Virus record (IMG/VR): IMGVR_UViG_3300037455_000543
Span: 123,136-187,135 of that record
Length of the DNA: 64,000 nt
Strand: one strand, 5' to 3'
Origin: a virus
Lineage: Duplodnaviria; Heunggongvirae; Uroviricota; Caudoviricetes
The notes below the pieces were generated by a model, which had not been told where the DNA came from, searched no databases, and saw nothing but the letters and a program-made list of their open reading frames with translations. Each line of letters opens with the position of its first letter. Within the stretch, counting starts at the first letter, position 1. Shown here piece after piece: positions 526 through 64,000 of the stretch. The translations under genes were made by a program, and so were the position numbers.

Positions 526-528
526 TTA

Positions 529-9254: not shown

Positions 9255-9703
9255 AACTAGAAGACTATGAAGAACTAAAAATCAGGGCTGATAAAGAACT
9301 TAAAATGCCCGATACTATTGAAGAAATTATTAAGCGTAGAAATACCCTTCCAGCAGACGAACAGAAATATACGAAACTTTTAGCAACACAAACTCAGCTC
9401 TGTGCCGACCTAGAAGTAGATCTTGCTGAACTTTATGGTAAGCTATATAAGTGTTATAAGTTTCCCAGAATGAACAAAGAACTTATACAGAAATATGGAT
9501 TAACAATTAATGAAATTTGGGACACTTCTAAAGGCATTGAAAGTCAGATAGACTGCGTTCCAGAATATATTAAACTGAAAAAAGAATTGAATATCCAGAA
9601 AGCAATTAAAGAATTCGTTCAAGATACAAGAAAGAGTATTATTGATTTAGGTTTCGCAATCAAAGATTACCTAGATTATAAACGCGGATTAATGTCCACT
9701 TAA
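9251..9703 (+). CDS. hypothetical protein (150 aa)
   Basis: ORF with an ATGA overlap. Confidence 0.5.
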   Translation: MKLEDYEELKIRADKELKMPDTIEEIIKRRNTLPADEQKYTKLLATQTQLCADLEVDLAELYGKLYKCYKFPRMNKELIQKYGLTINEIWDTSKGIESQIDCVPEYIKLKKELNIQKAIKEFVQDTRKSIIDLGFAIKDYLDYKRGLMST

Positions 9704-9706
9704 AAA

Positions 9707-9736
9707 GAAAACCGGTTATTAAAACCGGTTTTTATT
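9707..9736. terminator. bidirectional terminator between convergent genes
   Basis: GAAAACCGG-TTATTAA-AACCGGTTTT flanked by A and T runs. Confidence 0.5.
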
Positions 9737-9737
9737 T

Positions 9738-12341
9738 TTATGTTACGCCAAATAATGGTCTCCACATCATCTGTGCCCTTGATGGACCATGTTCATATGC
9801 AGGAGTAGGATCATTTATTATATCTTGATATGAACTTACACCACTCTTAACACCTGTACACCCCATAAATGCACTTGCATATCTTGCAGTATTATCATAG
9901 AAATGTGAAGCAACATAATCTAATATCGGACCAATATCAGAAGTTATTGCAGTACAGCCGGCAAACATTCCAGACATGTAGCTAATATCTGTTGCTGATA
10001 AATCTGTTTGTATATCTGTTATTTTAGAACAACCAGAAAACATACAAGTTGCATATTGTAACATAGGAGCAAAAGATTCCCATTTTGTAGGTGGAATCAT
10101 CTTGTCATAATAATTTCCTGTTATACTCTTACAACCCGCAAACATTTCGTTTGCCGCAGTCAAATTTGATAAAGTACCTTTAGGAAATGTTGTTACCTTA
10201 TTACAATTTTTAAACATGGCTGGTCCATATTCAAAACGGGTTAAACCATAAAAATTTGGTAATTCAGTTAATGAAATACAATTTTGGAACATCGATGGTG
10301 CACCTGTAAGTCTGCCCATATTATTAAAACTATCAGGTACTTCTTTTAATGCTGTTGCACCATTAAATAAACTTGGTAATTGTGTTATATTTATACACCA
10401 ACCAAAATTAGCTTTTATTGCTGTTAACGCTGTCAATGGTTCACTACCATTCACATACATTCCAGTAATATTCTTGACCGATTCACCAAGTTGTGTTATT
10501 TCTGTAATATTACTATTAAAATAAACTGGCGTTCCTGTTAAAATATTTGTCGGTAATTGTAATGCCAAATATGAATATTTTTCTGTACTACCATGATTTT
10601 TGTCAAAACCGTCTGAACCATAATATATAGAATTTGCTGGTTTTGTTATAATATATCGTGAATTTGTTTCTACTTCAGGGTCAAATGAATTTATATAATT
10701 TATTGAATCCAATACAGTAGGTATATCATAAGAATTTTCTTCATTTATTTCGAACGTTTTATGTCTCTTACCATATGTATCATATATGTAAGTATAACCG
10801 TCAAATTCCATAAAAAACGGTCCAATTGGCACATAAGTACGTTCTAATTTACCAGAATTATTATTGTTATCCCAGCAAGTATAAATTTTACCTAATTTAT
10901 CATCGAAGAATGCATAAGTTGTATCATTTATTTTTTTGAAATGTGTATCGTCAAATTTATATGCTTTACATTCCCAGTTATATTCATAATGTCTAGGATT
11001 AACACCGACAGTCCTATATTGAGATACTCCTTTCAATCCGATAACAAAATATTTATCAACATTTGTATTATAGTATTGACTTAAATTATTGCCAGAGAAT
11101 AGTAATGCGCCACCATAGTAGTCTGGTATATTATTTTTAGATATCATTGTATAGCCTTGACCACTTACAATAGGCGTAACTGTACTTTGTGCAGTCGGAT
11201 TCATTAAATACTTATTTGCTACTCCGATTGGATAAAATGAAATATTATAACTATAGCCGCCGCCACCGCCAACATCACCAACATAGCATTCTACATTTGT
11301 CCAGTGATAATCACTTACATTATATGAACTAACAGAGTTTTCAACTTTTTTGTATTCAACATCTGCGGTTACTGTTGCTGTCGCATCACCAATATATAGT
11401 TTTCGTAATATACCCGTTACATTAGTTCCGGTATTATTAAATACGAAAAATAAATCATCTCCTGTCAATGTGAGTGGCACATCGCTTAGATCAATATTAC
11501 TTAGTCTTGCAGTAAAGCCAGATGTAAATACTTGTTCAGTCGTATCAAAATGAAGTATACGTTCATCATCATAAAATTCTGGTATTGTAAATTTTTTATC
11601 TAATACATATTGAGTAGAATGTGTTCTTGCAGGATGGTACCTAAAGTCTTCACTTGCATATACCCGGCCAGTAATTGAATATAAATCAGCGTTACCTGAA
11701 AATTTTTCATTATATGCTGTAGCATAGACTTGACCTGTAACCCCTGCAGGACTTTGACCAACCAATCTCCATGTACTGGCATCTACAATAATACTAATAT
11801 CATTATTATTTGCAGAACCCCAAGCATGTCCTATAGCCCATGTGTTATCAGTAAATTGGCAATAATTATAAATACTTTCATTATAAAAATCTGTTTCTAC
11901 ATTCGGAATCGTACTTTCATTTACAACAACTCTATGTGCTGTTGCTGTTGAAAGATAATTAGCAGATTCATTATTTGGAAATTCAGAAAATTCACACCAA
12001 TTTTCTAGGCGGTTAAATTCTTTAAACCAAGCATCACCTGTTAATACACTTTTTAAATCTATAGTTGGACCCCAGCCATTACCGCCACCATCACCGCCTT
12101 GCGAATAACCAGACCGTGCTTGATTTATTCCTATAAAACCTTGAGTATCTTCGTCATATGTTTGATGCTCACCAATAACCAATGCATTAGTACCAGGAAA
12201 AAATACTTTTTCTGTAGTTAACATTGGCTGTAATGACATCGTTGCATTGCCATCAAAACCTTTAGAACTACCGAACATTGCAAATGCGGTAGTTAATGGT
12301 ATTAACTGGGCTGAATTACTGTTATCTTTTTTTATTAACAT
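9738..12341 (-). CDS. tail fibre / receptor-binding protein with C-terminal BspA-type leucine-rich repeats
   Basis: 867 aa. The C-terminal 200 aa carry repeated MF..C..iT... LRR_5-like units (MFQNCISLTELP, MFKNCNKVTTFP, MFAGCKSITG, MFSGCSKITD, MFAGCTAITS). Confidence 0.55.
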   Translation of the reverse strand: MLIKKDNSNSAQLIPLTTAFAMFGSSKGFDGNATMSLQPMLTTEKVFFPGTNALVIGEHQTYDEDTQGFIGINQARSGYSQGGDGGGNGWGPTIDLKSVLTGDAWFKEFNRLENWCEFSEFPNNESANYLSTATAHRVVVNESTIPNVETDFYNESIYNYCQFTDNTWAIGHAWGSANNNDISIIVDASTWRLVGQSPAGVTGQVYATAYNEKFSGNADLYSITGRVYASEDFRYHPARTHSTQYVLDKKFTIPEFYDDERILHFDTTEQVFTSGFTARLSNIDLSDVPLTLTGDDLFFVFNNTGTNVTGILRKLYIGDATATVTADVEYKKVENSVSSYNVSDYHWTNVECYVGDVGGGGGYSYNISFYPIGVANKYLMNPTAQSTVTPIVSGQGYTMISKNNIPDYYGGALLFSGNNLSQYYNTNVDKYFVIGLKGVSQYRTVGVNPRHYEYNWECKAYKFDDTHFKKINDTTYAFFDDKLGKIYTCWDNNNNSGKLERTYVPIGPFFMEFDGYTYIYDTYGKRHKTFEINEENSYDIPTVLDSINYINSFDPEVETNSRYIITKPANSIYYGSDGFDKNHGSTEKYSYLALQLPTNILTGTPVYFNSNITEITQLGESVKNITGMYVNGSEPLTALTAIKANFGWCINITQLPSLFNGATALKEVPDSFNNMGRLTGAPSMFQNCISLTELPNFYGLTRFEYGPAMFKNCNKVTTFPKGTLSNLTAANEMFAGCKSITGNYYDKMIPPTKWESFAPMLQYATCMFSGCSKITDIQTDLSATDISYMSGMFAGCTAITSDIGPILDYVASHFYDNTARYASAFMGCTGVKSGVSSYQDIINDPTPAYEHGPSRAQMMWRPLFGVT

Positions 12342-28756: not shown

Positions 28757-30907
28757 TTAAAGGTGTAATACTCTGTCATGAATATCGCCTAAACGACCCT
28801 GACACATTTCGTTAGCATTTGAAAGATAACCACAAACACGACGAATAATATTCATTGTGCCTGCTTCGGTATTACCACACTGTGGGCACTTCCAAATAAG
28901 CTTACCATTTTCATCCTTTACCATGCTAATTTCGCCTTGGAAACCACATTTCTGACAAGTATCAAGTTTTGTATTAATTTCAGCATACATGATATTGTCA
29001 TAGATATGTTTAATAACAGCCATAATAGCATCAACATTATTAGCCATATTAGGTGTTTCTACATAAGAAATTGCACCACCCGGAGAAAGCTTCTGGAATT
29101 CTGCTTCCTTGGTAATCTTCTCGAATGCATCAATCTTTTCGAAAACAGGAATATGATAAGAGTTAGTGATATAGTTACGGTCAGTGATACCTTCTACTAC
29201 GCCGAATCTTGCCTGTAAGCACTTAGCAAACTTCTCAGTAGTATTTTCAATCGGAGTTCCATAAACAGAATAGTCGATTTTTTCAATCTGCTTCCATGCC
29301 TTACACTTATCATTAAGCTTCTTCATAACTTCAAGACCAAATTCTCTACCACCTTCTTCAGTATGAGATTTACCAGTCATATACTTTACACATTCATAAA
29401 GACCAGCATAACCAAGGGAAATAGTAGAATATCCATTATAAAGGAGGTTATCAATAGTTTCACCTTTCTTTAATCTAGCAAAAGCACCATTCTGCCAAAG
29501 AATCGGAGCAACATCAGACTTGACGCCACGAAGATGTTCATGACGTAATCTCAAAGCACGGTGACAGAGTTCCAACCTTTCCTCAAGAATATACCAGAAC
29601 TTTTCAATATTCTTACCAGAAGATAATGCGACGTCAGGCAAGTTAATAGAAACAACACCCTGGTTAAAACGACCGTAATACTTCGGCTTCTTAGTCTTCG
29701 GATCTCTATATGGAGTCAAGAACGAACGACAACCCATACATGGATAGCAATCACCTTCTTCTCCCTTCTTAGAAATCTTCTGCTGCTTCATTATCTTTTC
29801 AGAAATATAGTCAGGAACCATTCTTTCAGCTGTGCATTTTGCAGCAAGCTGTGTCAAATAATAATACTTACTATCTGGATGAATATTATCTTCTTCAAGA
29901 ACGTAAAGAAGCTTCGGGAACGGGTTAGCATAGTAAACACCAACTTCATTCTTTACGCCCTTGATTCTTTGGTTAAGAATTTCTTCAATAACTCTTGCCA
30001 AGTCTTCCTTAGCTTCTTCGTTTTCTGCTTCATTCAAGTAAAGACATACAGATACGAAAGGTGTTTGACCGTTAGTAGTCTGCAAAGTTAAAATCTGATA
30101 CTGAAGAGTCTGAACACCATCACGAATATCCTTTCTAACAAGCTGTTCAATCTGTTCTTCATTCATGGTCGGGAATTCTTTCTTAAAGTATTCTCTTGCA
30201 ACCGGAATAAACTTTGCAAGATGACTAGCAGTAATAGTCTGACCACCATATTGTGACGATGCAACCTGTGCAACAATCTGAGATGCAATATTACAAGCAT
30301 TTCTGAAAGTATGCGGCTTATCGATTGTATTACCAGAAATTACTGTTCCATTCTGCAACATATCGTCAAGGTTGATCAAGCAACAGTTATGCTCTGGCAT
30401 TGCGAAATAATCCATGTCATGGAAATGAATAATGCCTTCCTTATGAGCTTTCCAGATATCTGACGGAATAAGATAACGTCTTGAAATATCTTTAGAAACT
30501 TCACCTGCCATATAATCTCTCATTGTAGAGACAATAGTCGGGTTCTTATTTGCATTTTCCTGCTTAATTTCTTCATTATCGCCATTAAGTAACGCAAGAA
30601 TCTTATCGTCAGTAGTGTTAGTTCTATTGTCAAGTGCTTTCTGATAACGATATGTAATATATTCAGTTGCGACTTCATATTTTCCAGCGACCATGATAGA
30701 CTTTTCAACCATAGACTGGATATCAAGATAACTAATAGTTACTGTAGCCTGCTTACATTTATCTTCTATATTTTTAGCGATTTCCTTTATTTCGGCAATC
30801 GTGAGTCTGTCTTCCATTCTAACCTTCTCATTTGCCCTGGAAATCGCTTCAATAATATTAGTTTTATTAAACACTGCTTCAGAACCATTACGCTTTCTAA
30901 TCTTCAT
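28757..30907 (-). CDS. nrdD: anaerobic ribonucleoside-triphosphate reductase (class III)
   Basis: N-terminal ATP-cone (MKIRKRNGSEAVF...). C-terminal glycine-radical motif RVCGYL plus zinc ribbon CQKCG...CPQCG. The ATG at 30907 is preferred over the TTG-initiated extension to 30958 in the track. Confidence 0.9.
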   Translation of the reverse strand: MKIRKRNGSEAVFNKTNIIEAISRANEKVRMEDRLTIAEIKEIAKNIEDKCKQATVTISYLDIQSMVEKSIMVAGKYEVATEYITYRYQKALDNRTNTTDDKILALLNGDNEEIKQENANKNPTIVSTMRDYMAGEVSKDISRRYLIPSDIWKAHKEGIIHFHDMDYFAMPEHNCCLINLDDMLQNGTVISGNTIDKPHTFRNACNIASQIVAQVASSQYGGQTITASHLAKFIPVAREYFKKEFPTMNEEQIEQLVRKDIRDGVQTLQYQILTLQTTNGQTPFVSVCLYLNEAENEEAKEDLARVIEEILNQRIKGVKNEVGVYYANPFPKLLYVLEEDNIHPDSKYYYLTQLAAKCTAERMVPDYISEKIMKQQKISKKGEEGDCYPCMGCRSFLTPYRDPKTKKPKYYGRFNQGVVSINLPDVALSSGKNIEKFWYILEERLELCHRALRLRHEHLRGVKSDVAPILWQNGAFARLKKGETIDNLLYNGYSTISLGYAGLYECVKYMTGKSHTEEGGREFGLEVMKKLNDKCKAWKQIEKIDYSVYGTPIENTTEKFAKCLQARFGVVEGITDRNYITNSYHIPVFEKIDAFEKITKEAEFQKLSPGGAISYVETPNMANNVDAIMAVIKHIYDNIMYAEINTKLDTCQKCGFQGEISMVKDENGKLIWKCPQCGNTEAGTMNIIRRVCGYLSNANEMCQGRLGDIHDRVLHL

Positions 30908-31051
30908 ATATTTTCCTCTTTTTTGCCTCTTAAAAACGAACAAAAATCGTCTCACCAACCTGAGTTTTACCTCTCGTGGTTTTATATTTATGTTGCTTTT
31001 GAAAGCTGCAAAAATGCTATTTTACTTATTTTTTTACCAATCTTTTCCATA

Positions 31052-31163: not shown

Positions 31164-32741
31164 TTAACCGTTGAGCTGCTTCGGTTCGGTCTTACCACCG
31201 ACACCAGCGAGCTTGCTACCCATGAGAGAGCTGAGCAATACACGCGGGTCGATACCGAGAGAGTCGGTCAAACCACTAGTAATCTGAGAGATGGTCTTGG
31301 TGATGTCACCAGTGAGCTTAGCACCGTTTCCTTCACCATACATAGTGATGTTACCAATCTTTTCCATCGGCTTAGCGACAGCACCAGCGATTTCAGGCAA
31401 CTGAGCGAAGTAAGTCTTGAGTGCATCGAGCTGCATGTCCTGCTTAGCAGCGTCACCATACTTAGCCATAGCGTCAGCCTTCTTATCAAGAGCTTCAGCT
31501 TCTGCAAGACCCTTAGCCTTAGTAGCAGCAGCTTCACCTTCACCCTTAAGCTTACTTGCACGACCTTCAGCTTCACCAGTAGCAGCAATACCCTTTGCCT
31601 TATTGACTGCAGCTTCGTAATCAGCTTCAGCCATGGTCTTAACAGCGACTGCCTTCTGTTCCTGTCCATAACGGTCAGCATCAGCACTTCTTTCTTGTTC
31701 ATACTTTTCAGCTTCAGCTTTCTTCTGTCTTTCATACAGAGCAGCATCAGATTGCTTCTGCTTTGCATAGAGTGCAGCTTCAGCCTGGAGCATTGCGGCA
31801 GACTTTTCAGCTTCTGCCTTCTTAGTAATCTGAGCTTCAAGTTCCTTCTGAGTAACAGCTACGCGACGTTCCCTAATTTCAATTTCCTTTTCCTGCTTTG
31901 CAACTTCAGCTTCAGCAGCGGTAATGTTAATTTGCTTCAACTGAGTCTGCTTCTGAATTTCATAAGCAGCATCTGCAATAGCCTTCTGATTATCTGCTTC
32001 CTTCTTCAGGTTTGCTTTCTTAATTTCAAGTTCGTTGTTTCGTTCAGCAATAGTTGTTTCGGTCTTAACTTCAGCGTCGTTTGCTTCCTTCTTAGCAACA
32101 GCCTGAGCAACCTTAATATCCTTTTCAGCCTGAGCCTTAGAAATTGCTGCCTGCTTCTTAATCGCAACGATATTATCAATACCAAGGTTAACAATCACAT
32201 CATTATCGTCTTCAAAGTTCTGAACATTGAAAGATACAAGATCAAGACCCATAGCAGCGAGGTCCGGAGTAACATTTTCTGTAACCTGCTGTGCAAATGC
32301 CTTTCGGTCACCAATCATGTCGGTAAGCTTCATCTTACCGACAATCTCTCTCATATTACCTTCAAGAACTTCATTCACAACGCCTGCAATATAATTAGTG
32401 TCCTTATTCAAGAAGTTCTGAGCTGCAATCGGCAAAAGCTTTTCATTATTAGAAATCTTAACGTTAACGTTCGCATCGACTGTCACGTTAATATAATCTG
32501 CAGTCGGAATTGATTGCTTAGTCTTGACGTCAATCTTAATAAGCTTCAGAGAAAGCACGTCAAATCTTTCAAGGAACGGAATTCTGATACCAGCTTTACC
32601 AATGATATATCTCGGCATTTTTCGAATACCAGAGATAATATATGCAGTATCAGGCGGAGCCTTAATATAAGACATCACGAAGATGATACCGAGGAAGATG
32701 AGAACAGCGGCAACGCCGCCAATGATATAGAGATTAGGCAT
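31164..32741 (-). CDS. SPFH/band-7 (flotillin-like) membrane protein with a long Ala/Glu/Lys coiled coil
   Basis: N-terminal TM helix followed by the SPFH core IIGKAGIRIPFLERFDVLSLKLIKIDVKTKQSIPTADYINVTVDANV. About 250 aa of AEAEK-type coiled coil follows. Confidence 0.75.
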   Translation of the reverse strand: MPNLYIIGGVAAVLIFLGIIFVMSYIKAPPDTAYIISGIRKMPRYIIGKAGIRIPFLERFDVLSLKLIKIDVKTKQSIPTADYINVTVDANVNVKISNNEKLLPIAAQNFLNKDTNYIAGVVNEVLEGNMREIVGKMKLTDMIGDRKAFAQQVTENVTPDLAAMGLDLVSFNVQNFEDDNDVIVNLGIDNIVAIKKQAAISKAQAEKDIKVAQAVAKKEANDAEVKTETTIAERNNELEIKKANLKKEADNQKAIADAAYEIQKQTQLKQINITAAEAEVAKQEKEIEIRERRVAVTQKELEAQITKKAEAEKSAAMLQAEAALYAKQKQSDAALYERQKKAEAEKYEQERSADADRYGQEQKAVAVKTMAEADYEAAVNKAKGIAATGEAEGRASKLKGEGEAAATKAKGLAEAEALDKKADAMAKYGDAAKQDMQLDALKTYFAQLPEIAGAVAKPMEKIGNITMYGEGNGAKLTGDITKTISQITSGLTDSLGIDPRVLLSSLMGSKLAGVGGKTEPKQLNG

Positions 32742-33902: not shown

Positions 33903-36900
33903 TTACTTCTTATTTGGACGCTTGAAACCAAATGTCTTCATAGTTTCATCTTTCTTTACAGTCTTGTCACCTTTACGTTGTTCCTTATAATCACAACGGT
34001 GCTTTGCAATCGACTTACTATAAAGTTTAGTCAAATATGCGCCTGTTCCAAGAGCATGTTTATTCTTGGCCTTGACAGTTCCATCTCTATCAGCTAACCA
34101 ATCAATAACCATCTGAACTGTTCCTGCACTTGTAGTCTTAGCTTCGTCATTCAATGTAAATTCGATATTGAAATCGTTTACATAGTTAGCAGCATTAGTA
34201 TAGACCCAAAGATGTAAGTTGTATTTTACATCATAGAGAGGAATATTCAAACCATACTTCTGATAATCCTTCTGGAATTCTTCAGTACAATGCTCTTCAA
34301 CATACTGATCAACTGGAATTCCATGTGTGGAGGCACCCACTATATTGCCATTATCATCAACTGGAATCTGACCGTTTTTCGTGATGTCATCCAATGTGGC
34401 GAGTGAACCCGTCGGAGAAACAGATGGAAGTACAATATCAACCTTGAAGCCAACACCAATTACATCTGGAATTGTATCATTCTTCGGGTCAACAAACTTA
34501 ACGTCATAAGGTTTCTTATCATTATACTTGTGACCGCTAGAATAATATTCATCAACCTTGTCCTGATCAACCATAGTTACTGGATGAACAAGCTCAATAT
34601 CAATATCCTTTGCTTCATTCATAATAACCATTACGGTATCAGCAGAAACGTTACCTGCCTTATCAACATATCTTCTAATAACATAGTTGACACCTTTTTC
34701 AAGTCTCTGTAAATTCAATGTATCTTGAACAATACCATTTACTGTCCACTTGACCGGAATTGCATTGGTATTGTAAGATTGTCCACGAACTGGATCAGAA
34801 ATTTCAACCTTAGGCGGAATATTATCATAGATAATATCTACCTTAGAAGAAGCCTTGTTACCAAAGTCATCAGTATATACATAGCTTACAGTAAAGGCGA
34901 TGTTACCTTCCTTGTTCTTCGTAATCTTCTTGTCATCACCAAGATAATAAGAAACAGTAGTGCAAGAATCAACCTTATAAGAAACTTCATAATCGCTAAC
35001 TCTCTGACCAGTCAAATTATCAGTCTTATAAGTGATAGTCAATTCCTTACCGTCTTGCTTAACTGTATATGTAACAGTCTGAACAGTATCAATCGGGTTC
35101 ATTTTCTTATCAACAATCTTGGTCAATGTAATCTTTCTATCACCATCCTTGACAACTTCCTTGACTTCAATCAAGCCACCGCCAATCTGTGTATATGTAG
35201 CAAGAGACTCATCAATCAAGTAATTATATTCGGTTACGTTCTTAGAAGAAACGTGAAGAGTATCAAGCTTAACATCAATCGGGAAAGTCTTTTCTGTCTT
35301 ATGAATAGTATCACGAACAGTAACCTTTAATTCATTATCTTTCTTATTGACATAAATCTTATCATCCTTTTCTTCTTCGATAGTAATGTAGTCAATCAAG
35401 GCATCAGTAGACTTTGCATTGGTCAAAGTAACAACTGGCGGAGCATCATTGAACAATACTACGATAGAATCACAAACAGTCTTCTTATCATTACATACCT
35501 TAATAGTTGTGTCCTTATGAATTCTAGGATTATCATAATGAGTTGTGCAGCTATCGCCTTCACAAATGGTCCACTTGAATTCATGGTCAGGATCATTGGT
35601 CTTTACGGTATCAGGTGGCGGATTATGATCCCATTCAGTAATCTTTACATCTTCAGGTTCATCGAGAATTCTGATAATTACCTGGGCGGTATCAGAAAAT
35701 TCACCATCGGTTACAATAACAGTTACAGTGTCCTTAGTCTTCTTTTCATAGTCAATCGGGTTCTTGATAGTAATTACACCAGTAGAATCGATAGAATAGT
35801 TCGTAGTATCGGTAATTATATACTTAGGAGTTGTTTTATCTTCATCGGTTGCAGTAATCTTGCAAACCTTACCAGTATAATTTTCCTTTACAGAACAAGT
35901 AGTATCTTGAACATGAACTGGCTCATTAATATCAGTTACCTTAATTACATAGGTAGCTGTATCAGCTGCACCACTAGAATCCTTTGCAATAACCGTAATC
36001 TTAACTTCTGGAGTTTTCTCATAATCAAGAGGATCAGTGAGCTTTAATACACCATTAGAATCGATTGTAAAGCCTGGTTCCTTAACTTCGTAAATTACCT
36101 TATCGCTATCTGGGTCAACAGCAGTAATGATGCCAACAATACAGCTCTTGCAATTTTCAGGAACTATAAGAGAGTCATTCGGCTGTAATACAGGAGGTTC
36201 ATTTACATTCTTAATATCAACAACAACTATGGCAGTATCAGTAAATACGCCATCAGTTACAAATACCTTAACAGTATCGGACTTAGTAACTTCATAGTCA
36301 AAAGGATCTACCAGTCTAAGAACACCAGTATTAGTATCGATGCTGTAATGCACAGTATCATCGCAAGAAAATTTAACAGGCTTTCCATCTTCATCTTCTC
36401 CTTTGACTTTACCGATTTCGCCAGTCTTGCCTTCATCTACAACAAATGTAGTATCTTTGGTATGAACTGGTTCATTAACATCAGTTACTTTTATATTTAC
36501 AGTCATAGTATCTTTTGCCTTACCATCGTCAGCAACTACCTTGAATGTAAATCCTTTTTCTTTTTCATAGTCAAATGTTCTAGTAGAAGTAATTACGCCA
36601 GTAGAATCAATCTTGAAAGGAACAGTTCCAACAATAGAATAAGTAATCTTATCACCATCTTGGTCAGTAGCCTTTACACTATCCTTAAACGGTTTATTTT
36701 CATCTACATAGAATGTAGTATCATGAGTAGCGAACTTAGGACCATCATTGCTGTTTGTAATATTAACAGTAACAATAGCACTATCCTTTAAGCTAGGATC
36801 ATTCTTATCCTGGACCAAAACCTTAATTGTATAAGTCTTTTGGTCTGTTTCATAATCAAATGTCTTCTTAGCCCACAATTCGCCATCAGAATCAAGTCTG

Positions 36901-38690
36901 AAGATACTTGTATCGCCTTCAAGCATTGTGAATATATTCTGGGTAAATGCAGTCTTAGTATCTGGATCTTTTGCAACTAACTTCTCAACCATGAACGGAT
37001 GAATAAGATTTTCCGGAAGATTAGTAGTTACATCATCGATTGTCGGAGCTTCATTAACATCGATAACTGTAATAGGAATATTACGAGTTACACTTACATT
37101 GCCAGTATCAGTCAATGTAATCTTAATAACATCGATTGCAGCTTTTTCATAATCTAATGGTTCACCAATAAGTGTCAACTTACCAGTCAAGCTATCTAAT
37201 TCATATCTATCAGTATATGCACTATCAAGATGGAAACGAGTATTAGCTGTTCCATTCAAAATCTTGATTGCATCTACTTCACCAAGCTTATTTTCCTCAA
37301 ACTTATATGTCTTTGTAGTATCAAATTCAACATGTCCAACCGGAGCATCAATAATTTTAATCTTTAATTCACCGTCAGTTTTACCATTCGGAAGAATAGC
37401 CCCAGAAATATCTGTAATCTTTACATATAAATATTCATCTTCTGTCAATGTATCAATCTTAACATTAACTTGGATTGGCGTCAATGGTAACTTAGAACCA
37501 GTAGGAATAACAACTTTCTTACTTTCACCATTTCCACAAATCGGAAAAGAAGGTGGAATATTAAAGTCATCAGTTGTTACACCGTCCTTCAAATCAAGAC
37601 AATATGTGAAATAAACATTAATATCAGTTGTATCGCTAAGTTCAATAGGAATAATTACTGTAGAATCATTTTCTCTCAAACCGCCATACTTATCTAGCTT
37701 AACATCGATTGTATCAGGGTCAAACTTAACAAATCTGAAATTCTTACCATTATATGTATCACCAATTCTTAACTGATTAGCAAGTAACTGACCAGCAAAA
37801 TTAATATTACATGCAAGATAGATTTCCTTAGTAGAAATCATAGTTCCTTGCATAATAGAATTATCAGAATGTTCAATACTAATGCTTTCATCAGTATAGA
37901 TAATTACATTACCACGATAATCGGACTGACTTAATTCATATTTAGTAGAGTCAGTTCTATAAACAACCTGAATCTGACCATGGTCATGATAAAGGAAATG
38001 CTTTACAAAAATACGTGTAAGTCTACCACCATCCTGCATTTCAATCTGCAACTTCTGATGGTCAAGCTTAAACTGAATAGTATCAAGATAAATGTCATAC
38101 TGGTCATTACCATCAGGAACAACGATAGTTTTAATATCACCATTTAATTGATTATCAAATATAATACTATGAGAAATAGTATCAGGCCATGTAATAGTCG
38201 GAATAGAAAGATTTACCGGTGCAGCAGGAACATTATCTACACAAACTTGAGTGGTAGAAGTAAAAATACTATCATTTGAACAATGATTTACTTTAGAATT
38301 ACTTACATCATTTAAACAGACATAACCATTAATACATGCGCCATTCTGGTTTGCATAAGTATATGTATTAGCTCTAACCGGACCAGAAGTCAAAGTAGGC
38401 TGGTCTCCGAAAGTAATATTACCATTTACCAAGACTGGACCACCAAGATTCAATCTTGCATTAGCTGTCATATATCCAGCTGTTCCATTCCAGCCAGACT
38501 TATCCTGAATCGTAACATCATTACCGATTGTAAGATAATCTCTACCAAAGAGCTTATACTTAAGCATATAATCAAACTCTGCCTGTTGAGAGACAGAATC
38601 TTCTGCTACCGATTCAAAATTAAACGGCTTATAATCAGCACTCCAGACGAATGCAATCAAGAAAAGAATAATTCCAAATATCTTTTTCAT
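33903..38690 (-). CDS. giant secreted protein (1595 aa) with multiple cadherin-like repeat domains
   Basis: N-terminal signal peptide MKKIFGIILFLIAFVWSA. Repeated VxDVNE(P/A)P linkers (DVNEAPTIDD, NSNDGPKF, DVNEPVH, NVNEPPV, DINEPVH). Cadherin Ca-site-like motifs ATDQDGDKITYSI, AVDPDSDKVIYEV, ATDEDKTTPKYII. Basic KRPNKK tail. Confidence 0.7.
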   Translation of the reverse strand: MKKIFGIILFLIAFVWSADYKPFNFESVAEDSVSQQAEFDYMLKYKLFGRDYLTIGNDVTIQDKSGWNGTAGYMTANARLNLGGPVLVNGNITFGDQPTLTSGPVRANTYTYANQNGACINGYVCLNDVSNSKVNHCSNDSIFTSTTQVCVDNVPAAPVNLSIPTITWPDTISHSIIFDNQLNGDIKTIVVPDGNDQYDIYLDTIQFKLDHQKLQIEMQDGGRLTRIFVKHFLYHDHGQIQVVYRTDSTKYELSQSDYRGNVIIYTDESISIEHSDNSIMQGTMISTKEIYLACNINFAGQLLANQLRIGDTYNGKNFRFVKFDPDTIDVKLDKYGGLRENDSTVIIPIELSDTTDINVYFTYCLDLKDGVTTDDFNIPPSFPICGNGESKKVVIPTGSKLPLTPIQVNVKIDTLTEDEYLYVKITDISGAILPNGKTDGELKIKIIDAPVGHVEFDTTKTYKFEENKLGEVDAIKILNGTANTRFHLDSAYTDRYELDSLTGKLTLIGEPLDYEKAAIDVIKITLTDTGNVSVTRNIPITVIDVNEAPTIDDVTTNLPENLIHPFMVEKLVAKDPDTKTAFTQNIFTMLEGDTSIFRLDSDGELWAKKTFDYETDQKTYTIKVLVQDKNDPSLKDSAIVTVNITNSNDGPKFATHDTTFYVDENKPFKDSVKATDQDGDKITYSIVGTVPFKIDSTGVITSTRTFDYEKEKGFTFKVVADDGKAKDTMTVNIKVTDVNEPVHTKDTTFVVDEGKTGEIGKVKGEDEDGKPVKFSCDDTVHYSIDTNTGVLRLVDPFDYEVTKSDTVKVFVTDGVFTDTAIVVVDIKNVNEPPVLQPNDSLIVPENCKSCIVGIITAVDPDSDKVIYEVKEPGFTIDSNGVLKLTDPLDYEKTPEVKITVIAKDSSGAADTATYVIKVTDINEPVHVQDTTCSVKENYTGKVCKITATDEDKTTPKYIITDTTNYSIDSTGVITIKNPIDYEKKTKDTVTVIVTDGEFSDTAQVIIRILDEPEDVKITEWDHNPPPDTVKTNDPDHEFKWTICEGDSCTTHYDNPRIHKDTTIKVCNDKKTVCDSIVVLFNDAPPVVTLTNAKSTDALIDYITIEEEKDDKIYVNKKDNELKVTVRDTIHKTEKTFPIDVKLDTLHVSSKNVTEYNYLIDESLATYTQIGGGLIEVKEVVKDGDRKITLTKIVDKKMNPIDTVQTVTYTVKQDGKELTITYKTDNLTGQRVSDYEVSYKVDSCTTVSYYLGDDKKITKNKEGNIAFTVSYVYTDDFGNKASSKVDIIYDNIPPKVEISDPVRGQSYNTNAIPVKWTVNGIVQDTLNLQRLEKGVNYVIRRYVDKAGNVSADTVMVIMNEAKDIDIELVHPVTMVDQDKVDEYYSSGHKYNDKKPYDVKFVDPKNDTIPDVIGVGFKVDIVLPSVSPTGSLATLDDITKNGQIPVDDNGNIVGASTHGIPVDQYVEEHCTEEFQKDYQKYGLNIPLYDVKYNLHLWVYTNAANYVNDFNIEFTLNDEAKTTSAGTVQMVIDWLADRDGTVKAKNKHALGTGAYLTKLYSKSIAKHRCDYKEQRKGDKTVKKDETMKTFGFKRPNKK

Positions 38691-41494: not shown

Positions 41495-41760
41495 GGAAGA
41501 CATTCAGAAGTCTTGTTCCTCGGAGCGAAGCTCAACCCAATGATGTTGTCGGTAGAGGGCAAGCCAGCGAAAGTCGAGGTGTGGCTTTCTAACACTGAAC
41601 AGGTACTAACTGTTGCTGAACCACCACTGACGTATTATCTAACGAATAATACACGTAGCCGCCATTGGCACGGTATGATATAGTCGGAGTACAGGATGAC
41701 CAGCCCGTAAGCATATCGATAAGTCCCGAGAGTTGACGCCAGAAGTAGATCTGGATTTTT
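41495..41760 (+). ncRNA. candidate structured ncRNA (about 265 nt, GC-rich island), family unknown
   Basis: GC is roughly 50% against a 33% background. Flanked by a promoter box and a terminator CCAGA-AGTAG-ATCTGG plus ATTTTT (41739-41760). Multiple local stems (AAGAC/GTCTT, GAGC-GAA-GCTC, AGCC..GGCT, GCCA-TGGC). The only ORF is TTG-initiated with 63 codons. Confidence 0.4.
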
Positions 41761-48745: not shown

Positions 48746-50104
48746 ATGACAGATAATGAATTTGAACAAGTTGTAATTAAGACTATATATGCTAATCCAT
48801 CTGCATCAAGTAAAATTGTTCCAGAATTAGATCCGAATTGGTTTATTCAGGTTGATCATAAGTATATTGTTGATGCTATTGCAAGTTATAATGGTAAATA
48901 TTCTACTTTGCCGAATGCTATAGAAATTAAGAGACTGCTTTCTGATGAAAGAAGTATTGAAGAATTCGAAAAATGTATGGCAATTCCGGATAGTGATGTT
49001 AATACGCCATTTATTCTTGATGAGATTCAGACATTCGTAAGAAAAAGACTTGGTAGACAAGTATGTATGGCATATAATGAATATTGCTCTACAGGCAAGG
49101 CAAAAATAAGCTTTGCTGATGAAATGGCATATGCACAGTCTTTTACATTCGACGATAAAATTGGTTTTGCATTTTGTGAAGAACCAGAAAAAGTATATAA
49201 CGGAATTATTACTAATGAAAAGGTAATTCCATTAGGCTGTGCAACGCTTGATGAGATGATTCATGGTGGTGCACATGAAAAGAGTATGACATTGGTTATG
49301 GCACCGACTAACGTTGGTAAAACATTATTCCTTTGTTCATTTACGACTTCTGCAATTTTAAACGGTAAGAAAGTATTATATATTACTTTCGAAGACTCTG
49401 AAATTAAAATTGGTCAGAGAATTACACAGAACTTATTTGATATTACTCAGACACAATTATATTCTTTGTCCAAAGAGAATTATGGTAAGCTTTGGAAGAA
49501 ATCAATGTCTCAGATTGGACATAACAAGCTTATCATTAAAGAATATTCTGCTGGTTCTGTAAATGCTCTTATGTTACGTGCTCTTATTAAGGAACTTAAA
49601 GAGAAAAAAGACTTTGTTCCTGATATGATAGCAGTTGACTATATTGGATGTATGATTCCTAATGGTCGTTATAATTCTGATATGAATGATAACTCTAAGC
49701 TTCGTTCTGTTTGTGAAGAAGTAAGAGCAATCGGTATGGACATGGGCATTCCTATCATATCTGCTGCACAGGCTAACAGAGGTGGTTATGGTAAAGCTGA
49801 AATTGGTCTTGATGATGCTGCTGACTCTTTTGGTCAGACAATGAAAGCAGACGTTATTTTTGGTGTTACTCAGACACCAGACCTCAAGTCTGCGAATATG
49901 TATACGGTCAAGTTGCTTAAGACCAGATATGGTCAACCTCCTGCACCGATGGTTACAATCGGTGTCGATATTGAAAAACAAAGAATATATGATTTGAAGA
50001 CATTCAGTAATATTCAACCGACTGGAACAAATTACAATACTGAAGACGAAACGGTTATCGAATCTACTATTAAAGAACCGAACGTCAATAACTTTACATT
50101 CTAA
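48746..50104 (+). CDS. replicative DNA helicase, DnaB/gp41-like
   Basis: Walker A MAPTNVGKTLFL (T4 gp41 GAPNVGKS), Walker B IAVDYIG, arginine-finger region AAQANRGG. 452 aa. Confidence 0.8.
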   Translation: MTDNEFEQVVIKTIYANPSASSKIVPELDPNWFIQVDHKYIVDAIASYNGKYSTLPNAIEIKRLLSDERSIEEFEKCMAIPDSDVNTPFILDEIQTFVRKRLGRQVCMAYNEYCSTGKAKISFADEMAYAQSFTFDDKIGFAFCEEPEKVYNGIITNEKVIPLGCATLDEMIHGGAHEKSMTLVMAPTNVGKTLFLCSFTTSAILNGKKVLYITFEDSEIKIGQRITQNLFDITQTQLYSLSKENYGKLWKKSMSQIGHNKLIIKEYSAGSVNALMLRALIKELKEKKDFVPDMIAVDYIGCMIPNGRYNSDMNDNSKLRSVCEEVRAIGMDMGIPIISAAQANRGGYGKAEIGLDDAADSFGQTMKADVIFGVTQTPDLKSANMYTVKLLKTRYGQPPAPMVTIGVDIEKQRIYDLKTFSNIQPTGTNYNTEDETVIESTIKEPNVNNFTF

Positions 50105-50114
50105 TTGAGGATAT

Positions 50115-50495
50115 ATGATAAACGAAGATAACTTATTGATTAATGAAGACTATGTTGACGGTTGTTCTAAGGACGGTTTCTATAAAATCCTCAAGGACAA
50201 TGGTATCGACATGGATAACATTGATCCAAATGACAAATTACCAGAATTCTTAATCAAGGTAATTAAAAATGAACCTGCTGAATACAACAAGTTCAATAAC
50301 ATCCTTTATAAGCTTCATAAGAACAATATTATCAATATACTTGATTCTATAGCTTATATCGAAGATGATTGGCTTGAATCTGCAGTTTTATTGAAATGTC
50401 TTGACGAACTGAATTATTTCTCGCTTAGAAGCGAACTTAAGAAGAAATATAAGATAACTCCTGAACAAAGTGGCCTAGAAAGTCTTTTTGCATGA
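50115..50495 (+). CDS. hypothetical protein (126 aa)
   Basis: ORF. Confidence 0.45.
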   Translation: MINEDNLLINEDYVDGCSKDGFYKILKDNGIDMDNIDPNDKLPEFLIKVIKNEPAEYNKFNNILYKLHKNNIINILDSIAYIEDDWLESAVLLKCLDELNYFSLRSELKKKYKITPEQSGLESLFA

Positions 50496-60771: not shown

Positions 60772-62244
60772 TTATCCGTTTATAAACTTTGGAATGTTAA
60801 ACTTACTACCAATAAATGTTGTTTCTACTTTCTTTCCGCCTTCGGTCGAAGAAACATTATAAACAAAATCTGTTCCCATGATTTTCTGTTCTTCTAATGT
60901 AGGGCTAAATGTACCTTCTTCAAAATAAGTAGTATAATAGGCTGAATAAGGTTTACCATATTCATCTACCATTTCCTTATATCCAAATGTTACAGTGTCA
61001 TCTGTAAATGTGTTGATACCAGACATCGACTGATAGAACTTCTGTGTAAGATATTCACCAGAATATGCAGTAACCATAATCTTATCTACATATTTGTCCT
61101 GTGCCGCATCATACACAAATTCAGGAATAGGAGTATATACGCCATTTTTTATTTCATACTTTTCATAATAATTATTTCTTTCATTTGCTGGCAAAGCACT
61201 AGGAATTAATGGCGCAGCACTTGAATAGAATCTGGACGATACAGAACTTAATTGCATTGCATCAGCATCATAAGTAGTCAATTCATCAGTCTTTTCATAA
61301 TTATAAACTGTGAAATGTGTTAATGGATTTCCAGATTCATCATAGGTATGAGTAGTCGTAGGATTTCCTACAAGTCTATAAACGTTACCGACTTTGGTAT
61401 TATAAATCTGACCAAAATCATATCTATGATCTAAGCTACCATCCTTATTTCCGAATGTAGCTGCATGATAAAGAAGTCTATCATTACCGGTAGATACAAA
61501 AGTATTAATACATTCGATAATACGTGCATCTTTAATGGGTTTATATAAAACCGCTTCCATAGTAAACGAGAAAGATACTGTAATTTTTCTCCAGTCTTCT
61601 TCACCCATGCTATCGGAATCGATTGTCCAGTTTATAGATTCAAGTTTTAACTTGATGCTTCTACGCTTATTGAAAAACCAAAATTCTTTTACGTCAAAGA
61701 ATGCTGCTGGTTGGAATCTTACTGCAACTTGTTCTACAATCTGTTGTGCGTCAGACATTTTCTCACAGTTAGCTTCCATTGATACTGTAAAATTATATGG
61801 AACTGGTTGGACATCAGACCAGAACTGTTCTTGCATCGCGCCTCTGATACCAGCATTTTCTAAGTCAGTTTCATAAAATGCTCTTTGTTCATAGATACCT
61901 TTTGCACGTTCAGTTGCGAACTGCATGGAATCAAGCCTATAAGTCAAGTTAGGCAAAGAAATATAATATTTCTTACCAGACTCTTCTTCAGTTCTAAAGT
62001 CATGAGACTTAGCTCTTGGACCGAACTTGATAGGCACATTGATTGTCTTTACAGGTTCACCATTCTTATTAAAGCGAACAACGCTTAAGTCATTAAAGAA
62101 ATTACCGAACCCGATAAACAATGAACGCATTGTATCTGCGAAATAATAATTATTAGGATAACCGTAATTCGGTGCGTTATCTATAGTGCCACGCCAATAA
62201 CCATTTACTGACGGATCATAATCTGTTTGTTTGTAATTTGCCAT
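60772..62244 (-). CDS. hypothetical virion structural protein (490 aa)
   Basis: ORF with a TATAAATA box immediately upstream (62249-62256, minus). Confidence 0.4.
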   Translation of the reverse strand: MANYKQTDYDPSVNGYWRGTIDNAPNYGYPNNYYFADTMRSLFIGFGNFFNDLSVVRFNKNGEPVKTINVPIKFGPRAKSHDFRTEEESGKKYYISLPNLTYRLDSMQFATERAKGIYEQRAFYETDLENAGIRGAMQEQFWSDVQPVPYNFTVSMEANCEKMSDAQQIVEQVAVRFQPAAFFDVKEFWFFNKRRSIKLKLESINWTIDSDSMGEEDWRKITVSFSFTMEAVLYKPIKDARIIECINTFVSTGNDRLLYHAATFGNKDGSLDHRYDFGQIYNTKVGNVYRLVGNPTTTHTYDESGNPLTHFTVYNYEKTDELTTYDADAMQLSSVSSRFYSSAAPLIPSALPANERNNYYEKYEIKNGVYTPIPEFVYDAAQDKYVDKIMVTAYSGEYLTQKFYQSMSGINTFTDDTVTFGYKEMVDEYGKPYSAYYTTYFEEGTFSPTLEEQKIMGTDFVYNVSSTEGGKKVETTFIGSKFNIPKFING

Positions 62245-62248
62245 ACAT

Positions 62249-62285
62249 TATTTATAATATAAAAAGAAAATCCAAATTATAAATA
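62249..62285. promoter_or_regulatory. divergent late promoters: TATAAATA on the minus strand (62249-62256) and the plus strand (62278-62285)
   Basis: The minus strand reads TATAAATAATGTATGGCAAAT. The plus-strand TATAAATATATAG is 39 nt before the terminase ATG. Confidence 0.4.
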
Positions 62286-62324
62286 TATAGTATAATCTAG
62301 CTAACTATCTGTGAGAATCTATAT

Positions 62325-63245
62325 ATGTGGATGAAAACCGCCGAGCTTCGCGGCCATAACGAAGAAGTTGAAATTACAAAAGAGCAAATGGATGAATATA
62401 TCAAATGCTCACGTGATATATTTCATTTCGCTGATTATTTTTATATCTTGACTGATGATGGTGAAGCACCTATCAAACTAAGAGAATACCAAGAGCGTAT
62501 TGTAAAAATGCTTATCGGTAAGTATTATGACAAAGAGGGTGTTATTCGTAATAACAGAATATGTATGATGGGTCGTCAGTGTGGTAAAACTACGATTGCT
62601 ACACTTTATATTCTATGGTATGCATTATTTAATAAAGATAAAACTATTGCGGTACTTGCTAACAAGGAAGACCAAGCAAAAGAAATTATGCTCAGAATAC
62701 GTTCTGCTATTCTTAAACTTCCTTTATGGATGCAGCAAGGCATTAATCCTGACCGAGGTGGCTGGTCAAAAGAAAGTATAGGTTTCGATAACGGAACTAA
62801 GATATTCTGCGCCGCTTCTGGTTCATCTGCTATTCGTGGTAAGTCCGTTGACCTTATGCTTGTGGACGAATTTGCGTTCTTGCCGGAAGAAGATGCTAAG
62901 GACTTTATTAAGTCTGTGTTCCCGACTCAATCTGCTAGAAAAGATGCTATGATGATTCTTATCTCTACTCCTCACGGTATGAATGAGTTCTATAACATCT
63001 GGACTAAGGCTGCTGCTGGTATTTCCAGTTACGTTGCAGCAAAAATTCAATGGTGGGAAATTCCAGGAAGAGATGAAGCATGGAAGAAACGTATTATTCG
63101 TGACTTCGGTATTCAGATGTTCCAACAAGAATATGCCTGTCTTTTAGGCGATGAAAAGATAACCGTAAGGTCAGAAGAAGGCATAGAATTGACCGATACG
63201 ATAGAAAATCTGTATGAACTTTATATGGACGGATTCCTCCGTTAG
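62325..63245 (+). CDS. terminase large subunit, ATPase domain only (T4 gp17-like)
   Basis: LREYQERIVKML (Q/adenine motif) and MMGRQCGKTT Walker A (T4 SRQLGKTT). TIAVLANKEDQAKEIMLRIRSAILKLP aligns to T4 AVGILAHKGSMSAEVLDRTKQAIELLP. LMLVDEFAF is Walker B, and ISTPHGMNEFYNIWT aligns to TTTPNGLNHFYDIWT. The ORF ends at 306 aa, near the ATPase/nuclease boundary. Confidence 0.8.
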   Translation: MWMKTAELRGHNEEVEITKEQMDEYIKCSRDIFHFADYFYILTDDGEAPIKLREYQERIVKMLIGKYYDKEGVIRNNRICMMGRQCGKTTIATLYILWYALFNKDKTIAVLANKEDQAKEIMLRIRSAILKLPLWMQQGINPDRGGWSKESIGFDNGTKIFCAASGSSAIRGKSVDLMLVDEFAFLPEEDAKDFIKSVFPTQSARKDAMMILISTPHGMNEFYNIWTKAAAGISSYVAAKIQWWEIPGRDEAWKKRIIRDFGIQMFQQEYACLLGDEKITVRSEEGIELTDTIENLYELYMDGFLR

Positions 63246-63335
63246 CTAAAGTTGCAAAAAACCAGAAAATCTCTTCATAAATAAAATAGGTGTGTGGAAT
63301 AAATCCATGCATAGGAAAATTTAAGGAGAAATACT

Positions 63336-63734
63336 ATGAAGAATAGAGACAACATCTATAACGTAGGTAACGATTACTTCCAGAAGCTTGACAAGTACTT
63401 CTTGGACACTGATGAAAAGGTATCAGCTGCAACTGATCCTAAGGGCAATCCACTTTATGGCAAGGCATATTCTGACGGTTTGTATCACTACACAACTGAA
63501 CCGGTTTATGAACTTTCTGGCGGTGCATCTGCTCTCAACAAGCGTGTATTCAACAAGCTTCCTCAGTCTGCATGGACAGCTCCAACTTTCATTACTGATG
63601 GCACTGTCGAAGCATCTGCATTCTCTGGCATCACTGATGCATCTGCTGTATTCAGCCCGGATTATGCTAAAGTCGAATTTGACTTCGAAACAGACAATAC
63701 TTGGTCTGGTACTCCAAAAGCCAAAGAAGACTAA
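63336..63734 (+). CDS. hypothetical protein (132 aa), possible head or scaffold-associated
   Basis: ORF between the terminase and the protease. AAGGAG RBS. Confidence 0.45.
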   Translation: MKNRDNIYNVGNDYFQKLDKYFLDTDEKVSAATDPKGNPLYGKAYSDGLYHYTTEPVYELSGGASALNKRVFNKLPQSAWTAPTFITDGTVEASAFSGITDASAVFSPDYAKVEFDFETDNTWSGTPKAKED

Positions 63735-63855
63735 TTGTTACTGATTAGCAAAAATTTAAAAACCTTAGAGTAAAATCTAAGGTTTTTTCTTATATTTCTG
63801 AAATTTTCATTTGATAAATTATAAATATATTAAAGCTAATTTTAGAGGTTTTAAT

Positions 63856-64000
63856 ATGGAAGCTAAAAAGCTATTAAATGAACAAGCTATTGCAGAAAGT
63901 AAGGTTATTAATGAAGACGCAGGCAATGGCATAAAGAGAATGTATATTACAGGTCCTTTTTTACAGGCTGTAGATAAGAACAGAAATGGACGTGTATATC
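63856..64000 (+). CDS. prohead protease (T4 gp21-like), N-terminal fragment (partial at the window end)
   Basis: ITGPFLQAVDKNRNGRVY aligns to T4 gp21 ISLANVENLNGRVYP. AGAGG RBS. Confidence 0.45.
   Translation, partial: MEAKKLLNEQAIAESKVINEDAGNGIKRMYITGPFLQAVDKNRNGRVY

Follow-up and report, generated by a model that had tools for sequence, protein, structure and literature searches.

The gene at positions 62325..63245 (plus strand) of the 64,000-nucleotide (nt) stretch analyzed here (the window, positions 123,136 to 187,135 of IMG/VR record IMGVR_UViG_3300037455_000543, a virus of the class Caudoviricetes) encodes the N-terminal half of a phage large terminase (TerL) that ends in a fragment of an intein. 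In all likelihood, TerL of this phage is encoded in two genes whose ends carry the fragments of an atypically split class 1 intein and whose products are joined after translation. This view rests on the anatomy of the two halves, their homology to known split TerL inteins, the conservation of the catalytic residues and the co-residence of the two genes in related phages, all of which are direct observations.

The open reading frame (ORF) of 306 amino acids (aa) starts with ATG and consists of an N-extein, an intein N-fragment (IntN) and a stop codon. It matches the Pfam family Terminase_6N over residues 79-277 (E=1.4e-21), and a phmmer search of the PDB identifies T4 gp17 (E=2.3e-37; residues 6-249 against positions 91-321 of 3ezk_A); judging from these matches, the host protein is a gp17-type large terminase. 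In an alignment of the window protein with 17 homologues (the 18-protein alignment, to which the statements on N-half conservation below refer), Q56, the Walker A motif (GRQCGKTT, residues 83-90, 62571..62594, plus strand, with G87, K88, T89 and T90), the Walker B motif (LMLVDE, residues 177-182, 62853..62870, plus strand, with L179, V180, D181 and E182) and the C-motif STP (214-216) are invariant, which bears out the first-pass annotation of this DNA, where a T4 gp17-type ATPase with the adenine-binding Q, Walker A, Walker B and the C-motif had been recognized. The same annotation had correctly noticed that the N-terminal extension of T4 gp17, put there at about 75 residues, is missing. Because residue 6 of the window protein pairs with position 91 of 3ezk_A, T4 gp17 has about 85 extra N-terminal residues, and this difference is ordinary, given that the unsplit TerL of Pelagibacter phage Mosig likewise lacks the extension. 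The N-extein (residues 1-271, 62325..63137, plus strand, ending in FQQEYA) is collinear with unsplit TerL as far as residue 271, and its AlphaFold2 (AF2) model has block means of the predicted local distance difference test (pLDDT) mostly between 80 and 97 past the first 10 residues. In T4-type gp17, the ATPase and the RNase-H-like nuclease reside in one polypeptide, whereas the window ORF contains the ATPase motifs only; the mature spliced product would correspond to the T4-type architecture, with the nuclease supplied in trans as in the relatives. As reported in the first-pass annotation, the nuclease domain is missing downstream, and it was not found anywhere in the 64-kb window: a tblastn search with the C-terminal part of the unsplit Mosig TerL returns noise only, tblastn searches with the C-half proteins of five relatives detect no nuclease half, and a scan of the window for the HN[CST] motif reveals no C-half.

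The alignment with unsplit TerLs stops at FQQEYA, residue 271, and the last 35 residues of the ORF, CLLGDEKITVRSEEGIELTDTIENLYELYMDGFLR, are not TerL sequence. This segment, assigned as IntN from the alignment, the relatives and the PDB matches (residues 272-306, 63138..63242, plus strand), begins with Cys272, which corresponds to Cys1 of the intein, contains block A only and is terminated by a TAG codon (63243..63245, plus strand) that marks the natural split point of the intein and has an equivalent in relatives. The insertion point precedes the conserved Cys of the TerL hinge motif QExx-C(S/E)F(L/I)GS, between the ATPase and the nuclease (here and below, a hyphen between extein and intein residues, or between the two exteins, marks the insertion site). 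Cys272 is invariant in all 18 aligned N-halves, each of which has a short tail after it, and about 55 related split loci share the layout of QE[YF]x, the Cys, a block-A-like pattern C-[LCV]-x-G-x-x-x-[IV]-x-[VI] and a stop, the tail from the Cys to the stop being 28-38 aa long (59-76 aa in three loci). In the window, the block-A-like CLxGxExITV is likewise followed by the stop codon. As a sequence pattern, the combination of a Cys, a block-A-like tail and a stop is the signature of an intein N-terminus. The first-pass annotation had let the ORF end at the ATPase/nuclease boundary; this stands insofar as the nuclease is absent, but the last 35 residues, from Cys272 on, are IntN, so that there is no simple stop at the boundary.

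A contiguous counterpart of the interrupted gene exists. Locus L074, one of the IMG/VR loci (denoted L with a number throughout) scanned around homologues of the N-half for their gene architectures, encodes TerL as one uninterrupted chain of 662 aa, in which the same site is occupied by a cis mini-intein (...GEYN-CLKGDSLVTIK...NGILSHN-CSFLGSS...), with the first ~30 residues of which the window tail aligns; this mini-intein shows sub-threshold Pfam matches to Intein_splicing (1.4e-7) and PT-HINT. When the window IntN is concatenated with the intein C-fragment (IntC) of a relative, the best three PDB matches are CatC (E=1.2e-5), VidaL (0.018) and the gp41-1 intein (0.085), and the VidaL alignment crosses the IntN/IntC joint uninterrupted. 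In the AF2 model, the IntN tail is an appended hairpin and helix of lower confidence (pLDDT ~59-69). An apparent match of Synechococcus phage S-RIM2 extending into the IntN region was rejected, this phage having an ordinary contiguous TerL of 549 aa.

An artefact or a pseudogene, whether through an assembly error, a frameshift or gene decay, is hardly credible as the origin of the short ORF, and its length, about half that of the usual TerL, is the sole point in favor. The identical 306-aa protein is encoded on three independent metagenome contigs (ENA and JGI assemblies), and the exact protein is recorded also on a contig of 424,163 bp; the cluster of the window N-half at 90% identity has 54 members, on contigs of up to 678,800 bp; and the best 120 of 779 database homologues, with lengths of 218-359 aa, contain Pfam domains of the ATPase type only. 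The short ORF is, therefore, a conserved gene. Moreover, the 18-protein alignment shows that the tail following Cys272 is conserved as protein sequence, and no nuclease-like sequence was found in any frame downstream. The assembly error or frameshift considered in the first-pass annotation is thus contradicted.

A group I intron, with or without a homing endonuclease and with a second exon downstream, has a precedent among the Jug gut jumbo phages, related T4-like phages of 360-402 kb in which terL is fragmented by group I introns and among which the TerL of group Delta clusters with that of huge phages from sheep and cows (PMC12880540). The Jug terL fragments are adjacent, co-transcribed and spliced at the RNA level, whereas those of the window clade are dispersed, intron-free and carry intein fragments. 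Given that an Rfam search detects no family in 62000-64000 at E<=1 and that there is no downstream exon, the intron is rejected, its probability being practically negligible; the region after the ORF codes for an unrelated protein of 132 aa and for the prohead protease, a second exon was not found in the window, and the tail of the ORF carries intein block A rather than intron-derived sequence. An intron or intein that displaced exon 2 had been among the early suggestions for this gene. An intein is indeed involved, but, residues 272-306 being a split-intein N-fragment, the interruption is at the protein level and no exon is displaced.

The second half of TerL is encoded in relatives as ORFs of 347-353 aa that start with an IntC of about 101 aa, with the pattern M[FL]IK...CS.DH (block B)...VYTP...NG[IL]I[NH]HN, and continue with CSF[IL]GSS and the Pfam Terminase_6C nuclease domain. 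For example, residues 8-106 of the C-half from locus L172 match PDB entry 6DSL_B, “Consensus engineered intein CatC” (E=3e-4 for IntC alone), and residues 99-310 match positions 351-555 of T4 gp17 (phmmer, E=3.9e-23). The AF2 model of another C-half, P0121, consists of an all-beta N-terminal domain and a confidently predicted nuclease domain, connected at the splice junction by a linker of low confidence, and a Foldseek search with this model retrieves the nuclease of T4 and RB49 gp17 (down to E=4.6e-18) and many inteins, with the atypically split VidaL first among them (5e-6), along with gp41-1 (1.4e-5) and NpuDnaE (1.9e-4). The first-pass annotation had also offered a split terminase with the nuclease elsewhere, and a separate nuclease gene does exist in the relatives; the gene is not “simply split”, however, because the halves carry complementary intein fragments.

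Conservation was assessed in an alignment of 59 C-halves with identities of 30-89%. No substitution occurs at the block-B His38, the terminal Asn101 or Cys+1 (C102), and the block-B Ser35 and the penultimate His100 are conserved in at least 90%; in the nuclease part, D152, E210 and D296-D297, columns that we equate with the acidic residues of the nuclease, are also invariant. Judged by sequence, the residue set of a class 1 intein (Cys1, block-B Ser-x-x-His, penultimate His, terminal Asn and Cys+1) is complete. Removal of the intein in silico joins 271 and 250 residues into a protein of 521 aa, ...FQQEYA-CSFIGSSNTLISG..., which can be aligned from end to end with the unsplit 542-aa TerL of Mosig, without a gap at the junction (FQQEYA-CSFIGSSNTLIS versus FQQEFE-CEFLGSVNTLIS).

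Under the proposed scheme, the window gene would yield the ATPase domain (residues 1-271) fused to the 35-residue IntN that starts at the catalytic Cys272, and a second gene, located outside the window, would yield the ~101-residue IntC fused to the RNase-H-like nuclease, with Cys+1 of CSF[IL]GSS as the first residue of the latter; both genes would lie behind a late-promoter-like motif, TATAAATA. The short IntN would dock into the incomplete HINT fold of IntC, and an N-S acyl shift at Cys1, trans-thioesterification to Cys+1, and Asn cyclization with the subsequent S-N shift would excise the intein and leave a seamless TerL of 521 aa.

Several points weigh against this scheme. Trans-splicing itself is something we infer, and the conservation of the catalytic residues is what could be shown. 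The 35-aa tail taken alone yields no PDB match in a phmmer search, and the Pfam intein models do not match the concatenated IntN and IntC of the clade at E<=1; because of the latter, the intein assignment rests on the PDB sequence matches, the fold search and the cis-intein homologue. Furthermore, the C-half belonging to the window genome is absent from the window and was not recovered on any overlapping contig, so that its presence in this genome is deduced from relatives and from co-occurrence in one sample, and the exact C-half that belongs to the window genome is likewise a deduction. A rival reading is that the halves stay separate and that splicing-dead intein fragments serve as a non-covalent docking module of a two-subunit TerL: support for ligation is indirect, the Pfam intein hidden Markov models miss the concatenated intein, and T-even phages possess enzymes encoded by genes in pieces that work unligated, such as the ribonucleotide reductase split by insertion of a homing endonuclease (cited in PMC3322345). 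We regard this arrangement as quite unlikely. Cys1 is invariant in the N-halves, and the block-B His, the terminal Asn and Cys+1 are invariant in C-halves down to 30% identity, which argues for selection on catalysis and not on binding alone; this pattern of residue conservation is the one predicted by selection for splicing and, therefore, argues against a splicing-dead module. In addition, the homologous AceL-TerL, GOS-TerL and Cat inteins do splice.

The alternatives of a fused and a split TerL, raised in the first-pass annotation, both occur among the related genomes, where intein-free, contiguous mini-intein and split states are found at one and the same site. The site contains no intein in L079, L081 and the Pelagibacter phage Mosig (QEFE-CEF[LM]GS); L074 is contiguous with the cis mini-intein described above; and the remaining IMG/VR loci are split. 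In L075, the two ORFs are 36 nt apart, and in L022, the halves are adjacent and divergent. In many more distant environmental loci, the halves are adjacent as well, and each of the three such loci that were inspected (L135, L099 and L128) contains an ORF of 225-292 aa between the halves, at least one of which resembles a GIY-YIG endonuclease.

The clade of the window, with N-halves at least 60% identical, typically differs from these adjacent arrangements. The contig Ga0265298_10000003 (IMGVR_UViG_3300028832_000001, 415,750 bp), from the closest full-length relative, carries both halves, an N-half 87% identical to that of the window at 104,931-105,848 (plus strand) and a C-half at 46,283-45,231 (minus strand), 58.6 kb apart and divergent; that the C-half belongs to this record is confirmed by an exact 32-mer from its splice-junction region. 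Same-contig pairs on opposite strands were found also on contigs of 69 kb (halves ~45 kb apart), 139 kb (~53 kb), 291 kb (~59 kb) and 411 kb (~59 kb). Among the loci with an N-half at least 60% identical to that of the window, 54 hold no C-half around the N-half, nine of these with at least 9 kb of flanking sequence on both sides, so that dispersed halves are the rule in this jumbo-phage clade, from which the L022 group deviates, its halves being adjacent and divergent. In the window, the 62 kb upstream and the 0.75 kb downstream of the N-half contain neither a C-half nor an endonuclease gene. Similarly, ORFs collected from ~25 loci around C-halves, in an attempt to establish synteny, have no homologue in the window, and the neighborhood of the C-half is located elsewhere in the genome.

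The failure to find the C-half in the window or on any overlapping contig is also what would be expected if the phage had lost the nuclease half of TerL and used a stand-alone ATPase with a different nuclease. This possibility is very improbable: the conservation of an IntN with an invariant Cys would make no sense if no partner existed, every relative in which both halves can be placed on one contig carries the C-half, and JGI sample 3300031993 contains, alongside the exact window N-half, a C-half that shares 99% identity with the one on the 415-kb contig. As for the identity of the partner, the window N-half probably pairs with a Y-like C-half, 85-100% identical to that of L204 (clade Y being the L204 type). 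A pairing of the other C-half clade, X (L172 type), with the 85-89%-identical N-halves, guessed from co-occurrence in samples, was rejected because the 415-kb contig pairs its 87%-identical N-half with clade Y.

Where the surroundings of the C-half can be compared (L236, L249 and L273), a conserved block comprises a regA-like gene (Translat_reg), an ORF of 409-434 aa, an ORF of 444-450 aa on the opposite strand and TerL-C, followed by an ORF of 201-228 aa, the start of which overlaps or abuts the TerL-C stop, and by a 313-aa baseplate hub protein (PHROG 150). TerL-C is thus embedded among baseplate genes, not head genes.

The N-half gene is inverted in some close relatives. In L232 (positions 9046-10921 of the 678,800-bp scaffold TONG22-1_SAMN15871561 scaffold_1) and L010, with N-halves 94% and 86% identical, respectively, to that of the window (window region compared, 62245-63245), TerL-N keeps its place but has the reverse orientation with respect to the gp15-like and protease genes; in L232, the TATAAATA promoter region is inverted together with it, and a 276-aa free-standing homing endonuclease (PHROG 559 HNH, E=1e-24; PHROG 3339, E=2.7e-20), which has no counterpart in the window, adjoins TerL-N. 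The inversion and the neighboring endonuclease of L232 suggest an endonuclease-associated rearrangement of a fractured gene. The inverted repeats detected on the flanks of TerL-N are only short, imperfect and consistent with chance. Contigs of the N-half cluster at 90% identity are 411-464 kb long, with the one scaffold of 678,800 bp, and those carrying the related C-halves of the P0124 cluster are 409-425 kb long, so that a typical genome of the clade looks to be about 420 kb in size; the 678.8-kb scaffold belongs to a relative with a much larger genome, or else its assembly is chimeric or concatemeric.

Both the atypical split and the dispersed halves have precedents, given the known GOS-TerL and AceL-TerL inteins and the examples from cultured phages described below. 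A gp17-like terminase with a split intein “fractured at an unusual point” was identified in the Global Ocean Sampling (GOS) data (Dassa et al. 2009, PMC2677866), and AceL-TerL (IntN of 25 aa, IntC of 104 aa), GOS-TerL (IntN of 37 aa) and the consensus Cat-TerL (PDB 6DSL) are proven trans-splicers (reviewed in PMC11766414, where the work of Thiel et al. 2014, Bachmann & Mootz 2015 and Stevens et al. 2018 on these inteins is cited). As in the window, the host protein of GOS-TerL, AceL-TerL and Cat is the gp17-type large terminase of myoviruses. GOS-TerL and AceL-TerL have an IntN of 25-37 aa that contains block A only, and the 35-aa IntN of the window is built likewise; their IntC, with blocks B, F and G, is 104-122 aa long, compared to ~101 aa in the relatives of the window, where alone this fragment is available. 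The nucleophiles of AceL-TerL are Cys1 and Cys+1, as in the window clade, and the IntC of the clade is similar to CatC, with the E-values given above for IntC alone and for its concatenation with the window IntN, although the identity is low. The site in the window, QEYA-C(S)F(I)GSS at the ATPase/nuclease hinge, is probably the insertion site of AceL-TerL and GOS-TerL; the CatC chain continues with C-E, which fits a CEF site. By the host protein, fragment sizes, motifs and similarity, the window element fits the group of atypically split TerL inteins. The sources differ, AceL-TerL and GOS-TerL originating from aquatic metagenomes (Ace Lake and Global Ocean Sampling, respectively), and the window element from ~420-kb jumbo phages of what appears to be the ruminant gut.

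The “fractured genes” of Dassa et al. (2009) have their halves on adjacent ORFs with a free-standing homing endonuclease gene in between, and the same TerL site with the atypical split is found in many environmental loci and in Vibrio phages K469 and VP-1. The window departs from this organization in that the N-half is followed by the 132-aa ORF and the protease and the C-half is not in the window; in the relatives of the window, unlike the fractured genes, 45-59 kb separate the halves, which are on opposite strands and have a promoter-like motif each. The cyanobacterial split DnaE intein resembles the TerL system in that an essential enzyme is produced from two distant genes and rebuilt by protein trans-splicing; its two genes are presumably on opposite strands as well. 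The DnaE intein, however, is split at the canonical site (IntN of ~100-123 aa, IntC of ~36 aa), whereas the TerL intein is split after ~35 residues, and the host gene and organism differ.

Among cultured phages, the T4-like Campylobacter phage CP30A (Fletchervirus, NC_018861) encodes TerL in gp056 and gp082, 24 kb apart on opposite strands (49486-50202, minus strand, and 74590-75918, plus strand, of NC_018861.1; loci L299 and L296); in the record, these pieces are labeled just “terminase large subunit” and “putative phage DNA packaging protein”. An IntN of 31 aa, CVAGDTKITVRNKKTGVIEDITMEELYNRIG (...LIFIDE-CVAGDTKITV...), forms the end of the N-piece, and the C-piece begins with an IntC of ~100 aa (...NNFVSHN-CAFID...) that is homologous to the IntC of the window clade (tblastn, 4e-4 to 1e-3). 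In CP30A, the insertion is located after Walker B (LIFIDE-CAFID), unlike that in the window, which is at the ATPase/nuclease hinge. An in-frame insertion of 137 aa at the Walker B site of Desulfovibrio phage 7757 is probably a cis mini-intein. In the cultured Vibrio phages K469 (OZ195916.1, 1-3154, L297) and VP-1 (MH363700.1, L295), TerL is split at the same site as in the window (QExx-CLWG...), the N-half ORF continues after IntN into a fused GIY-YIG endonuclease, and the C-half, consisting of IntC and the nuclease, is the next gene, annotated “hypothetical protein” or “terminase like family protein”. VP-1 contains an additional cis intein inside Walker A (SGK-C...SHN-T). The kind of element described here is thus already known from GOS-TerL and AceL-TerL, and what is new is this particular TerL N-half together with the unannotated Campylobacter and Vibrio examples.

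The putative expression signals of the two halves are alike. The motif TATAAATA, which we take to be the T4 late-promoter consensus, is located at 62278..62285 (plus strand), 47 nt upstream of the start codon of TerL-N, and is found also ~30-50 nt upstream of the C-half genes of eight relatives. The window contains 25 copies against 13.5+/-3.8 expected, a count reached in none of 100 shuffles; 15 of the 25 precede a gene start on the same strand by no more than 130 nt, and another is just before a transfer-messenger RNA (tmRNA) gene. The sequence evidence points to a promoter function of the motif, and its presence upstream of both TerL halves suggests their late co-expression. Downstream of TerL-N, the order of genes is as given in the first-pass annotation, namely a 132-aa ORF at 63336..63734 (plus strand) and then the Peptidase_S77 prohead protease, which begins at 63856. 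The 132-aa ORF, which does not belong to the terminase, lacks a significant Pfam match as well as a PHROG match, and its position between TerL-N and the protease is retained in relatives, where the ORF is 113-132 aa long. No terminator-like site was found between 63245 and 63336, and a terminator-like hairpin with a 12-bp stem and a T-run at 63758..63787 (plus strand; a consensus match only) closes the unit of TerL-N and the 132-aa ORF, which are probably co-transcribed. A further possibility, which we consider rather improbable, is that the split has been co-opted in this clade, such that the halves are independent late transcription units separated by tens of kilobases and obligatory trans-splicing acts as a post-translational checkpoint that would keep the nuclease unlinked from the motor until both accumulate.

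Several other features of the window deserve mention. The tmRNA gene is located at 175-528 (plus strand; Rfam RF00023, 139.5 bits), with the tag peptide ANTYAMAA (followed by a stop) predicted by ARAGORN and TATAAATA immediately upstream, at 161-168. A full-length match to cow-rumen-2 RNA (Rfam RF02947, 99.3 bits against a gathering score of 66), a motif named after the cow rumen, is present at 41626-41731 (plus strand), in an intergenic region between divergent genes with TATAAATA motifs; this intergenic position in a jumbo phage suggests a phage origin of the cow-rumen-2 motif. On the minus strand, the window encodes a protein of 1595 aa that combines four cadherin domains with bacterial Ig domains (33903-38690), a flotillin/SPFH (Band 7) protein (31164-32741) and an intact 733-aa anaerobic ribonucleotide reductase NrdD (28757-30958), a gene that is often fragmented in related Jug phages. 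Dataset names, contigs of ~410-440 kb and the match to cow-rumen-2 RNA are together indicative of a ruminant-gut setting of the phage.

These findings imply that a “truncated” TerL in a jumbo-phage contig is not to be taken for a pseudogene, an assembly error or a sign of an incomplete genome, and that marker-gene pipelines and TerL phylogenies that expect a single protein of ~550 aa will mishandle the whole clade. The succession of states at one site, with no intein, a cis intein, an adjacent split and a dispersed split, documents how a fractured gene disperses. Split inteins with a short IntN are sought for protein engineering, and characterized natural TerL examples are few, AceL-TerL being cold-adapted; the animal-gut clade is a diverse and ready source of candidate atypical split inteins, which, if the checkpoint possibility were to hold, would constitute a large family adapted to gut temperature with an IntN of ~35 aa. 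If TerL of these phages is indeed assembled by trans-splicing, DNA packaging in widespread ruminant-gut phages of ~410-440 kb would depend on splicing between the products of genes located ~45-59 kb apart.

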